From the IMG/VR virus record IMGVR_UViG_2698536372_000014: a stretch of DNA of 9,898 nt; one strand, 5' to 3'. Each line of letters begins with the position of its first letter. Position 1 is the first letter of the stretch. The notes beneath the pieces are model-generated. The model saw nothing but the letters and a program-made list of their open reading frames with translations, did no database searches and was not told the origin of the DNA. This document shows positions 8,201 through 9,898 of this stretch, in pieces. The translations under genes and the position numbers were made by a program. The DNA comes from a virus. Its lineage: Duplodnaviria > Heunggongvirae > Uroviricota > Caudoviricetes.

Positions 8201-8557
8201 GTGGGCGAAGTCAAACATCAGAATGGAAGGCGTCCAGGGATCAGCAAAGAAACAGCGATGGCGCTTTATATTGATATCAGCGCCATTGCCGGACAGGTAA
8301 GAGTTATCAGAGCGGTAACTAAGCGGTATGCGCCTTTACTTCAGAAAGTCTCTGGTGAGTGCACCGAAGATATTGTCAACGATTTCGTCATCGAACTGCG
8401 AGGACTCATCTTCAGTTACAAGGTGACCACAATTTTTGCAGATGGCTCCCGCGAAACTGTCAGAGCCCTGCGGCTTAAAGGATGTGTCAAAGACTTAGCC
8501 ACCACATTCTGGGCAAGAAAACTTGATTGTATTCATAACCAATTTCCTCTCGAGTAA
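8201..8557 (+). CDS. Hypothetical protein, first ORF of the DicA-controlled operon (118 aa from GTG 8201; alternative ATG at 8258)
   Basis: Open frame with AGAGGA about 6 nt upstream of GTG 8201, immediately downstream of the predicted promoter; no recognisable family. Confidence 0.45.
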   Translation: MGEVKHQNGRRPGISKETAMALYIDISAIAGQVRVIRAVTKRYAPLLQKVSGECTEDIVNDFVIELRGLIFSYKVTTIFADGSRETVRALRLKGCVKDLATTFWARKLDCIHNQFPLE

Positions 8558-8629: not shown

Positions 8630-8848
8630 ATGCAGAAACGAGACCCCGTCATCATCGCGCCAGACTATACCGATGATGAACTTTATGAGTGGATGCACCA
8701 GAAAATTAAGGCGGTGCAGGACCTGAAATGGGCCAATGAAGCCAGGGCTAAGCAGGCTGAAAATCTGTCCGCTCTGGAGCAGGATATCACCAATCTGGAA
8801 AAAGCAGCGGCATTAAGCATTGCCAGAATGATTACATACCCACGTTAA
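8630..8848 (+). CDS. Hypothetical small protein (72 aa), YdfC-like by size and position
   Basis: ATG 8630 with strong AAGGAG 5 nt upstream; same length as K-12 YdfC, which sits upstream of dicF in Qin. Sequence identity to YdfC is not verified. Confidence 0.6.
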   Translation: MQKRDPVIIAPDYTDDELYEWMHQKIKAVQDLKWANEARAKQAENLSALEQDITNLEKAAALSIARMITYPR

Positions 8849-8870: not shown

Positions 8871-9278
8871 ATGGAATTTAAAGATTTACCAACGCCATTA
8901 CAGGAAATGGCATCGAATATAGTTCGTTCACAACTGGCTACTCTTGACCTTAGTACCGCAGAAAAAGAAACCATCGATAATATGGTTCGTAATGTGCGCA
9001 ATGCTTTTTCTGGGCTATATGGTTCTGATAATCAAAAGCAGGAAAGCGATGTTAATAAACGGGTAATTTCTGTTTGCGTGAATGGCCATGTTCTTTCATC
9101 AATCAAAACAGAAACGGCGACAGTCTTCGATTGCCTTTGCATTGTACAGAGCCTTGTTGATGCCCTGTTTCGTTCAGTGAATTTAGAAAATGATGCAAAT
9201 CTGCGAGGGCGCATAATAGCACATCCATATGCACATACTTTAGGCTCTGTGGATATCAAAGATCCCACAAATCTTTAA
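8871..9278 (+). CDS. Hypothetical protein (135 aa) in the AT-rich cargo segment
   Basis: ATG 8871 with GAGG 6 nt upstream; AT-rich codon usage distinct from flanking genes; a long ORF despite AT-richness argues it is real. No recognisable family. Confidence 0.55.
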   Translation: MEFKDLPTPLQEMASNIVRSQLATLDLSTAEKETIDNMVRNVRNAFSGLYGSDNQKQESDVNKRVISVCVNGHVLSSIKTETATVFDCLCIVQSLVDALFRSVNLENDANLRGRIIAHPYAHTLGSVDIKDPTNL

Positions 9279-9489
9279 TGAAATAGTTAACGCGAATTGT
9301 ACTTGCTCTTTCGGTTGCTTTCAGAATACGCGTTGAAACTGCTGGCGGTAATTTGGTATTCCATTTATTAAAATCATGCCCGGGAAAGTACTCTTCGAAA
9401 ATACTTTTAACTGCAGACTCGCCTATTGAAATGCTGCTTACCATGCGATTTTGATAAAGGCATTTAGCAATAAGAGTTGATTTTAACAT
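9256..9489 (-). CDS. Hypothetical small protein (77 aa), convergent with and overlapping the 3' end of the 135-aa gene
   Basis: ATG 9489 preceded by a near-consensus AGGAGGG 4-5 nt upstream; AT-rich; antisense to the DicF precursor transcript. No recognisable family. Confidence 0.5.
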   Translation of the reverse strand: MLKSTLIAKCLYQNRMVSSISIGESAVKSIFEEYFPGHDFNKWNTKLPPAVSTRILKATERASTIRVNYFIKDLWDL

Positions 9490-9822
9490 TCACCCTCCTG
9501 AGGGTTGGTAATTAAGGAGTTCTCCACGGGTGAAGTGGAGTGCGTGCGCCGGACACGGGTGAACATCCGGCACTGACAGTTTACTGAAAGGATATTTCTC
9601 TGAAAAGTCAGACCATAACGCGAAAGCGCACGGCGAGGTAGCTGGTTCATAGATAGCCTGTCGTTAAATTTTCGTCGACCGTGCGCTTCCGGTTGTGGCA
9701 ATCCGCGAAATGGCGCGGCGGTAAGTATGGAGGGGTTATTCCTTCCCCGTTGAGGACACCGGGTTGTCAGGTTGACCATACGCTTAAGTGACAACCCCGC
9801 TGCAACGCCCTCTGTTATCAAT
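9490..9822. other. GC-rich, highly structured non-coding segment between the cargo genes and DicF
   Basis: No convincing ORF on either strand (the minus ORF 9483-9821 has a TTG start and arginine-rich junk composition). Multiple stems: GCCGGA/TCCGGC (9548-9570), AGCGCACGG/CCGTGCGCT (9625-9687), CCGCG/CGCGG (9702-9717), GGGTTGTCA/TGACAACCC (9761-9797), plus a CGC-GAAA-GCG tetraloop hairpin. Confidence 0.35.
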
Positions 9823-9875
9823 TTTCTGGTGACGTTTGGCGGTATCAGTTTTACTCCGTGACTGCTCTGCCGCCC
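9823..9875 (+). ncRNA. dicF: DicF small regulatory RNA (antisense inhibitor of ftsZ translation) with its 3' terminator
   Basis: TTTCTGGTGACGTTTGGCGGTATCAGTTTTACTCCGTGACTGCTCTGCCGCCC followed by TTTTT matches the 53-nt DicF sequence as I recall it, including the terminal GC stem and U-tract. Confidence 0.8.
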
Positions 9876-9898
9876 TTTTTAAAGTGAATTTTGTGATG

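Follow-up and report, generated by a model that had tools for sequence, protein, structure and literature searches.

The structured leader RNA preceding DicF in a PPompW-type prophage and the pseudoknotted domain predicted in its 3′ half

What is the GC-rich, multi-hairpin element that directly precedes the small RNA DicF in a lambdoid prophage, and does any part of it act on its own? The question arises from positions 9490–9822 of the 9,898-nt stretch of phage DNA that was analysed as a whole (hereafter the window). A preliminary description of this region had offered three readings, namely, a structured 5′ precursor from which RNase III and RNase E release DicF, the 5′ leader of a 77-aa gene on the minus strand, and an independent structured RNA. 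In this study, the region was investigated by covariance-model searches, comparison with related loci and tests of base pairing. The segment is very probably the untranslated leader of an early operon of the dicBF type in a lambdoid prophage of the PPompW type, known from O26, O145 and O103 strains, and hence the precursor of DicF. As such the leader is a known element and not new, being a further copy of the DicF precursor leader. The reading as an independent structured RNA may hold for the 3′ half of the leader alone, which is called module B here.

Locus, composition and relatives of the leader

DicF was located by an Rfam covariance-model search at 9824–9875 on the plus strand (RF00039, 76.7 bits, E = 5.6e-16), and alignment with the annotated 53-nt dicF of K-12 extended it by one base to 9823. 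The adjacency claimed in the preliminary description is therefore exact, since the region ends one base short of 9823 at the very 5′ end of DicF; the small RNA sits outside the region yet belongs to the same RNA. Within 9490–9822 itself, no Rfam family matched at the gathering threshold, and none at E <= 10 on either strand. The contrast in composition was also borne out, with a G+C content of 0.535 in the region against 0.388 in the approximately 620 bp immediately upstream (8871–9489), where two ORFs lie. These ORFs are convergent and overlapping, and their function is unassigned; the 77-aa ORF on the minus strand is antisense to the operon transcript, and a promoter-like site for it was not found.

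The plus strand of 9490–9880 was predicted to fold at −146.5 kcal/mol, compared with −128.6 ± 5.8 kcal/mol for dinucleotide shuffles (z = −3.07; 0 of 100 shuffles equally good). The two halves of the leader, folded separately, gave z = −2.46 and −2.52, and the minus strand gave z = −2.69. The five or more stems described earlier were recovered as predicted helices H1, H2, H3 and H4, together with P1, P2 and P3 of the 3′ domain (Table 1). The limits first proposed for the element stand at the 3′ end and from about 9503 onwards, where alignment with the ydfC–dicF region of K-12 Qin and with phage Tritos shows 97–98% identity (9503–9898); the first 13 bases lie outside the conserved element. Because this similarity begins near 9503, bases 9490–9502 are assigned to the insertion that carries the two ORFs. 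They hold the GGAGGG Shine–Dalgarno sequence of the 77-aa minus-strand ORF, whose start is at 9489.

A stretch of 699 bp (9200–9898) is shared at 100% identity with O26, O145 and O103 E. coli prophages and with phage records named 'PPompW'. In RefSeq, the identical O26:H11 locus reads in the order of a Cro-like gene on the minus strand, an HTH repressor, a hypothetical protein, ydfC, the 135-aa ORF, the 77-aa minus-strand ORF, the leader, DicF, dicB, a DUF1482 gene and an exonuclease. The leader is thereby placed as in dicBF-type early operons, 3′ of a DicA-like repressor and ydfC and 5′ of dicB. In K-12 Qin and phage Tritos the leader follows ydfC directly without the two ORFs, which are therefore regarded as an insertion of 650 bp. 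The K-12 Qin region thus agrees with the present locus in strand, in place relative to DicF and dicB and in its predicted RNase III duplex, and differs by lacking the inserted phrog_1363 and phrog_10348 genes between ydfC and the leader. The host elements differ as well, with an intact-looking PPompW-type prophage here and a defective one in Qin. Three of the four neighbouring ORFs tested matched PHROG families at E <= 1e-38, with ORF 8201–8557 covered over residues 20–118 only.

The 320-nt leader was matched in 4314 of the 5426 complete E. coli genomes, at up to 8 places per genome, and nearly every record among the matches listed has no gene annotated over it by PGAP. Elsewhere in the window, a full-length match to the sok antitoxin RNA lies on the minus strand at 2558–2707 (RF01794, 103.9 bits, E = 2.7e-23), overlapped by a 70-aa minus-strand ORF (2405–2617), so the prophage also carries a hok/sok-type toxin–antitoxin module. 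ARAGORN reported no tRNA or tmRNA gene within the window.

Table 1 Coordinates of the DicF leader, its predicted helices and neighbouring features in the window
Feature	Position	Strand	Basis or remark
ydfC	8630–8848		annotation of the identical O26:H11 locus
135-aa ORF, phrog_1363	8871–9278	+	PHROG match
77-aa ORF, phrog_10348	9256–9489	−	PHROG match
Junction outside the conserved leader	9490–9502	.	similarity to K-12 Qin and Tritos begins ~9503
Module A, 5′ half of the leader	9503–9691	+	MFE fold; consensus fold of 20 diverged copies
H1	9519–9527/9535–9543	+	MFE fold
H2	9548–9553/9566–9571	+	MFE fold
H3	9573–9589/9595–9611	+	MFE fold
H4, long interrupted duplex with variable apex	9613–9638/9673–9698	+	MFE fold and alignment consensus
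Probable RNase III site, approximate	9685–9686	+	estimated from length
Module B, four-helix junction with pseudoknot	9692–9806 (~115 nt)	+	covariation; covariance model R1
P0, closing helix	9692–9699/9799–9806	+	
P1	9703–9707/9714–9718	+	
P2a, closes P2	9720–9722/9758–9760	+	
P2, CU-rich loop	9732–9735/9745–9748	+	
P3	9761–9772/9782–9797	+	
Pseudoknot, P1–P2 linker with P3 loop	9725–9730 (GUAUGG)/9776–9781 (CCAUAC)	+	
Linker, single-stranded, A/U-rich	9807–9822	+	RNase E processing site 9822/9823
DicF sRNA	9823–9875 (53 nt); terminator hairpin and U-tract to 9880	+	RF00039

Probable processing of the leader into DicF

In K-12, a 190-nt and a 53-nt DicF species both accumulate in stationary phase (Ragunathan et al. 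2023, PMC10448788). The 190-nt species is lost without RNase III and increased upon inactivation of RNase E, the 53-nt species requires RNase E, and no additional promoter lies within the dicBF operon (PMC10448788). The DicF 5′ end is generated by RNase E (PMC5069750), and an interval upstream of K-12 dicF is enriched with Hfq (PMC4152368). The first of the three original readings, a precursor that RNase III and RNase E mature, has thus been demonstrated for a K-12 sequence that is 97–98% identical (PMC10448788, PMC5069750), and the anatomy predicted for the present prophage fits it.

The RNase III site was estimated from the published 190-nt length and primer-extension result, by measuring that length upstream from the 3′ end of DicF (9875); the end made by RNase III may reach ~9691 if the U-tail is counted within the 190 nt. 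A cut near 9686 would lie midway along the 3′ arm of H4, approximately 11–12 pairs from either end of the duplex, and this duplex of 23 predicted pairs is positioned exactly at the expected start of the 190-nt species. The 5′ arm and apex of H4 lie inside module A, and among 20 diverged copies its arms are near-invariant and its apex variable. H4 is thus the putative substrate of RNase III. Because the 5′ arm of P0 overlaps the 3′ arm of H4 at 9692–9697, H4 and P0 are mutually exclusive. At the other end of the 190-nt species, the K-12 annotation and the alignment set the DicF 5′ end at the edge of the linker, which ends in GUUAUCAAU before the cut and is followed by UUUCUGG. The bases around this site are identical in K-12. 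RNase E prefers RN before and WUU after the cut, and the site at 9822/9823 fits this preference.

The maturation pathway that we propose runs as follows. Transcription would start at a promoter under repressor control, 3′ of the gene for the DicA-like repressor, and proceed through the small upstream ORFs and the leader, with a partial stop at the DicF terminator, as both steps do in K-12. RNase III, on which processing depends in K-12, would then cut H4 near 9686 and leave a stable RNA of ~190 nt that comprises module B, the linker and DicF. With the partner of its 5′ arm released by this cut, P0 could close and module B could adopt its junction fold, so that the single-stranded linker and, at the 5′ end, a short monophosphorylated tail would remain. 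Cleavage by RNase E at 9822/9823, a step known from K-12, would finally release the 53-nt DicF, which represses ftsZ and other mRNAs. Module B would most likely contribute to this pathway as a folded 5′ part of the 190-nt intermediate, lending it stability and offering the linker to RNase E.

Several points weigh against this precursor-leader pathway. Two extra ORFs, one of them on the opposite strand, precede the leader in this prophage, and read-through from the operon promoter is an assumption. The RNase III site is placed here by length arithmetic alone. Conservation of H4 is so strong that covariation is nearly lacking, with one compensatory pair. A passive role also gives no reason for the retention of module B's loops and pseudoknot in phage P1 and in several genera. 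Moreover, the RNase III step is not universal, since the copies in P1 and in cdtI-type phages have no module A.

The pathway also has counterparts among sRNAs that derive from 3′ UTRs or lie within operons, such as CpxQ, SroC and SdhX, in which RNase E frees the 3′, terminator-proximal piece as it does for DicF (review, PMC9438474). DicF differs from these sRNAs in its extra RNase III step and in its large, conserved and folded 5′ domain. To our knowledge, no such folded 5′ domain has been described for sRNAs of the CpxQ, SroC or SdhX type.

Database searches revealed that the leader is modular and that modules A and B occur separately. Copies of module A with no module B, at 80–82% identity, are present in phiSTEC1589-Stx1c and PhiR5_2, and in phiSTEC1589-Stx1c and related contigs module A is joined directly to a different DicF-like sRNA. 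Within module A, an alternative small hairpin, YCUG-AAAAGU-CAGR (9599–9612), is conserved, with a U-A to C-G covariation across copies. This hairpin reads CCCUGAAAAGUCAGGG in many copies, and the 5′ half of that sequence resembles lambda nutR boxB. An N-like antiterminator protein was considered and rejected, as the two small upstream ORFs have no arginine-rich motif. AT-rich gene insertions at hairpin boundaries were found in other copies. In other prophages, either a minus-strand gene starts right at the 5′ border of module A or AT-rich DNA is inserted directly behind H2 (loci L008 (2470–2500), L040, L056, L066 and L174). The boundaries of the leader hairpins look like recurrent points of insertion or recombination.

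Fold, spread and possible role of module B

Module B makes up the 5′ part of the 190-nt DicF species. Its fold was evaluated for covariation in two alignments. Among 26 representatives, 95.7% of cells were paired and 9 pairs had changes on both sides; among 44 distinct sequences, fitted to a covariance model (R1) built from the nested helices, 95.8% of cells were paired and compensatory changes were observed in 15 of the 38 pairs. Slid partners left only 33–55% of cells paired. None of 500 shuffles reached the observed values, and all five measures beat every shuffle for the 44-sequence set. The compensatory base changes for which the preliminary description had advised searching were thus found in P0, P2, P3 and the pseudoknot of module B. 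In P3, GGGUUGUCA/UGACAACCC here is replaced by GGGUAACCA/UGGUUACCC in Izhakiella. In P2, GGGG/CCCC here corresponds to CAGGG/CCCUG or CUGGG/CCCAG elsewhere, and in the pseudoknot GUAUGG/CCAUAC here corresponds to GCAUGG/CCAUGC in phage P1. The nested pairing that RNAalifold proposed for the linker between helices P1 and P2 was discarded, as it produces a C-C mismatch in P1-type sequences, in which the pseudoknot partner covaries instead.

The strand of this RNA can be read from the pairs themselves. G-U pairs make up 152 of 1671 cells, and 95.8% of cells are paired on the plus strand against 88.3% on the minus strand; the conserved pairs of module B thus include G-U pairs that exist on the plus strand only, which points to a plus-strand RNA. 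Model R1 detected one copy, and no more, in every one of 51 loci, and each lay on the DicF strand. For the 190-nt RNA, the fold with the covariation-supported helices enforced was calculated at −63.0 kcal/mol, with the pseudoknot uncounted, against −70.4 kcal/mol for the unconstrained MFE fold; the two would be comparable by our estimate after the six pseudoknot pairs are added.

Copies of module B were collected by a pattern scan of one genome per species, and were found in Escherichia, Shigella, Citrobacter, Trabulsiella, Serratia symbiotica, Erwinia tracheiphila and Izhakiella. Unrelated matches were excluded (L010, L025, L069, L071, L099, L132, L134, L136, L141, L150, L155, L158, L162 and L196). 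The search patterns fixed parts of the P1–P2 linker and of the P3 loop, so the invariance of these loops is in part imposed by the search; when the scan was anchored outside them, they came back nearly unchanged, but only among close relatives. Copies of module B that lack module A are found in phage cdtI, Stx2c phages, a record named Actinobacillus phage, P1 and P7. Where module B is absent, the junction falls between GGUUGUG and CAAC, the arms of P0. A hairpin followed by a T-run lies within 40–100 nt after module B in 183 of 184 copies, and the sRNA seed between module B and the terminator differs by lineage. Module B has no Rfam family, and a full-text literature search for its loop sequences returned no searchable text containing them; within the literature searched, the pseudoknotted domain is without a description.

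A further comparison is with phages P1 and P7, whose 'dicF-like region' lies downstream of the C1-controlled ban promoter and contains, as here, module B followed by a seed and an intrinsic terminator. Relative to the present sequence, compensatory changes occur in P2, P3 and the pseudoknot. In contrast to the present locus, the P1 and P7 copies are without module A and H4, and their seed and terminator sequences are different. The annotation of the 'dicF-like region' in P1 spans the 3′ part of module B, from helix P3 onward, and the terminator. This region lies ~45 nt downstream of the −10 box of the annotated promoter, and given this proximity a similar RNA in P1 could be a primary transcript.

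A separate reading gives module B a function beyond that of precursor material. Such a further function would be compatible with the precursor-leader explanation, and could take the form of cis control of read-through at the DicF terminator into dicB and the recombination genes, of an antitermination or riboswitch-like kind, or of an RNA that binds a host factor; we consider such a function possible but doubtful. It is favoured by the compensatory changes that P0, P2, P3 and the pseudoknot show across lambdoid prophages of several Enterobacterales genera and P1, by the place of module B directly before an intrinsic terminator in nearly all copies while the intervening seed varies, and by the P1 copy just past the C1-controlled ban promoter, where genes beyond the terminator need read-through. 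The Hfq-enriched interval upstream of K-12 dicF agrees with it as well (PMC4152368). However, no alternative pairing of module B with the terminator was found to be conserved, the spacing between the two ranges from ~12 to >40 nt, DicF-like sRNAs with module A alone exist, and the loop conservation is in part a product of the search patterns.

Two particular mechanisms were considered. A riboswitch-type switch, with which the place of a conserved folded domain right before an intrinsic terminator agrees, was judged doubtful, as no conserved antiterminator pairing was found. The 5′ arm of the DicF terminator (9840–9846) recurs as GGCGGUA at 9717–9723 in the P1–P2 linker of module B, and the unconstrained fold of the 190-nt RNA, calculated for this single sequence, pairs the linker copy with the 3′ arm of the terminator; the repeat is missing from the P1-type terminator, and the pairing is impossible in P1-type copies. 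The second mechanism was antitermination of the kind exerted by the put RNA of phage HK022, which resembles module B in being a structured nascent RNA of a lambdoid early operon upstream of terminators that need read-through. The put RNA has ~70 nt and two stem-loops, and occurs as a putL/putR pair beside both early promoters (PMC9378689). Module B differs from put in architecture, having ~115 nt, four helices and a pseudoknot, and a single copy per locus. A put-like antiterminator was set aside because architecture and copy number do not fit and because R1 gave no second, weaker copy at E <= 1.

The broader proposal is that module B is an undescribed structured RNA domain with an activity of its own, a conserved pseudoknotted 'chassis', common to P1 and to lambdoid prophages of several Enterobacterales genera, for lineage-specific sRNAs composed of a seed and a terminator, among them DicF and its relatives; we advance this tentatively, as the less probable view. 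Its activity could lie in the control of read-through at the DicF terminator, in licensing release by RNase E, or in an RNA that binds a factor after cleavage. Contributions to stability, to presentation of the cleavage site or to Hfq binding could be added to these.

Further features were observed next to module B in other copies. Those without module A carry GUGCUCU(C/U)U directly before P0 (L006 (2488–2500), L144, L147, L149 and L151). This motif resembles the boxA (NusB/NusE) consensus GCUCUUU, and the corresponding bases here, GUGCGCUUCC (9681–9690), lie in the 3′ arm of H4. A much longer terminator hairpin follows module B in Serratia, Trabulsiella, Erwinia, Izhakiella and some E. coli phage copies (L137, L147, L149, L151 and L058). 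The loop of this long hairpin holds a Shine–Dalgarno-like AGGAG and then AUG (GUG in L058), which could be the start of a small ORF held inside the hairpin. In the record of Actinobacillus phage vB_Apl-pPE4 (L007, 2602–2790), the 3′ arm of P0, the sRNA and the terminator are duplicated in tandem. The early region of that record is 84.8% identical to the leader of the window; its annotation lists YdaT-, DicA- and Kil-type genes, an unexpected finding for a Pasteurellaceae host.

Less probable readings of the region and significance of the leader

A structure selected mainly against the loading of Rho on more than 300 nt of untranslated RNA within the operon, and without any sequence-specific role, is an unlikely explanation. 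Rho loading needs unstructured RNA; the region is a long untranslated stretch inside an operon whose distal genes need expression, and it is G+C-rich and folds better than its shuffles, all of which agree with selection of this kind. Such selection, however, would not keep particular loops, a pseudoknot and an RNase III duplex at 97–98% identity across phages with differing flanks.

The second of the original readings, by which the region serves the minus-strand 77-aa gene (9256–9489) as its 5′ leader or promoter region, is very unlikely. The start codon and ribosome-binding sequence of this gene adjoin the region, and a minus-strand gene start adjoins the 5′ edge of module A also in L008, L152 and L172. 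The reading nevertheless failed, as K-12 Qin and Tritos have the leader without the gene and the conserved pairs favour the plus strand; in addition, a search of the minus strand of 9490–9898 gave no promoter-like site.

That the region codes for protein, either as a 112-aa minus-strand ORF (9483–9821) or as a decayed gene, is scarcely credible. The preliminary description had stated that no plausible coding frame exists. The region is indeed judged non-coding, although taken literally the statement does not hold, as this ORF, which starts with TTG, spans the whole region in a stop-free frame that is open in 31 of 69 distinct full-length copies. However, in 35 loci a common 1-nt length polymorphism (322 versus 323 nt) reduces the frame to 89 codons instead of 107, and 57–95 codons remain in other length classes; the ORF had no Pfam or PHROG match. 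The ORF was rejected as a gene because its frame is broken by 1-nt indels and it matches no family. A retron msr/msd RNA, suggested by just the general look of a multi-hairpin non-coding element, can be dismissed almost entirely, in line with the preliminary description, which rejected it as a firm call, since dicB, a DUF1482 gene and an exonuclease, and no reverse transcriptase, lie downstream, the Rfam search was negative as given above, and DicF processing already accounts for the region.

The processing of the leader into DicF has been studied since 1990, and a further copy adds little to it. The specialist interest of the locus lies in the 5′ body of the 190-nt species, whose covariation-supported fold is kept from P1 to the prophages of Erwinia and Izhakiella while the seed changes. 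If it is true that module B sets the yield of DicF or the read-through into dicB, a toxic cell-division module carried by about 80% of E. coli genomes would have in it a control point that has gone unrecognised.
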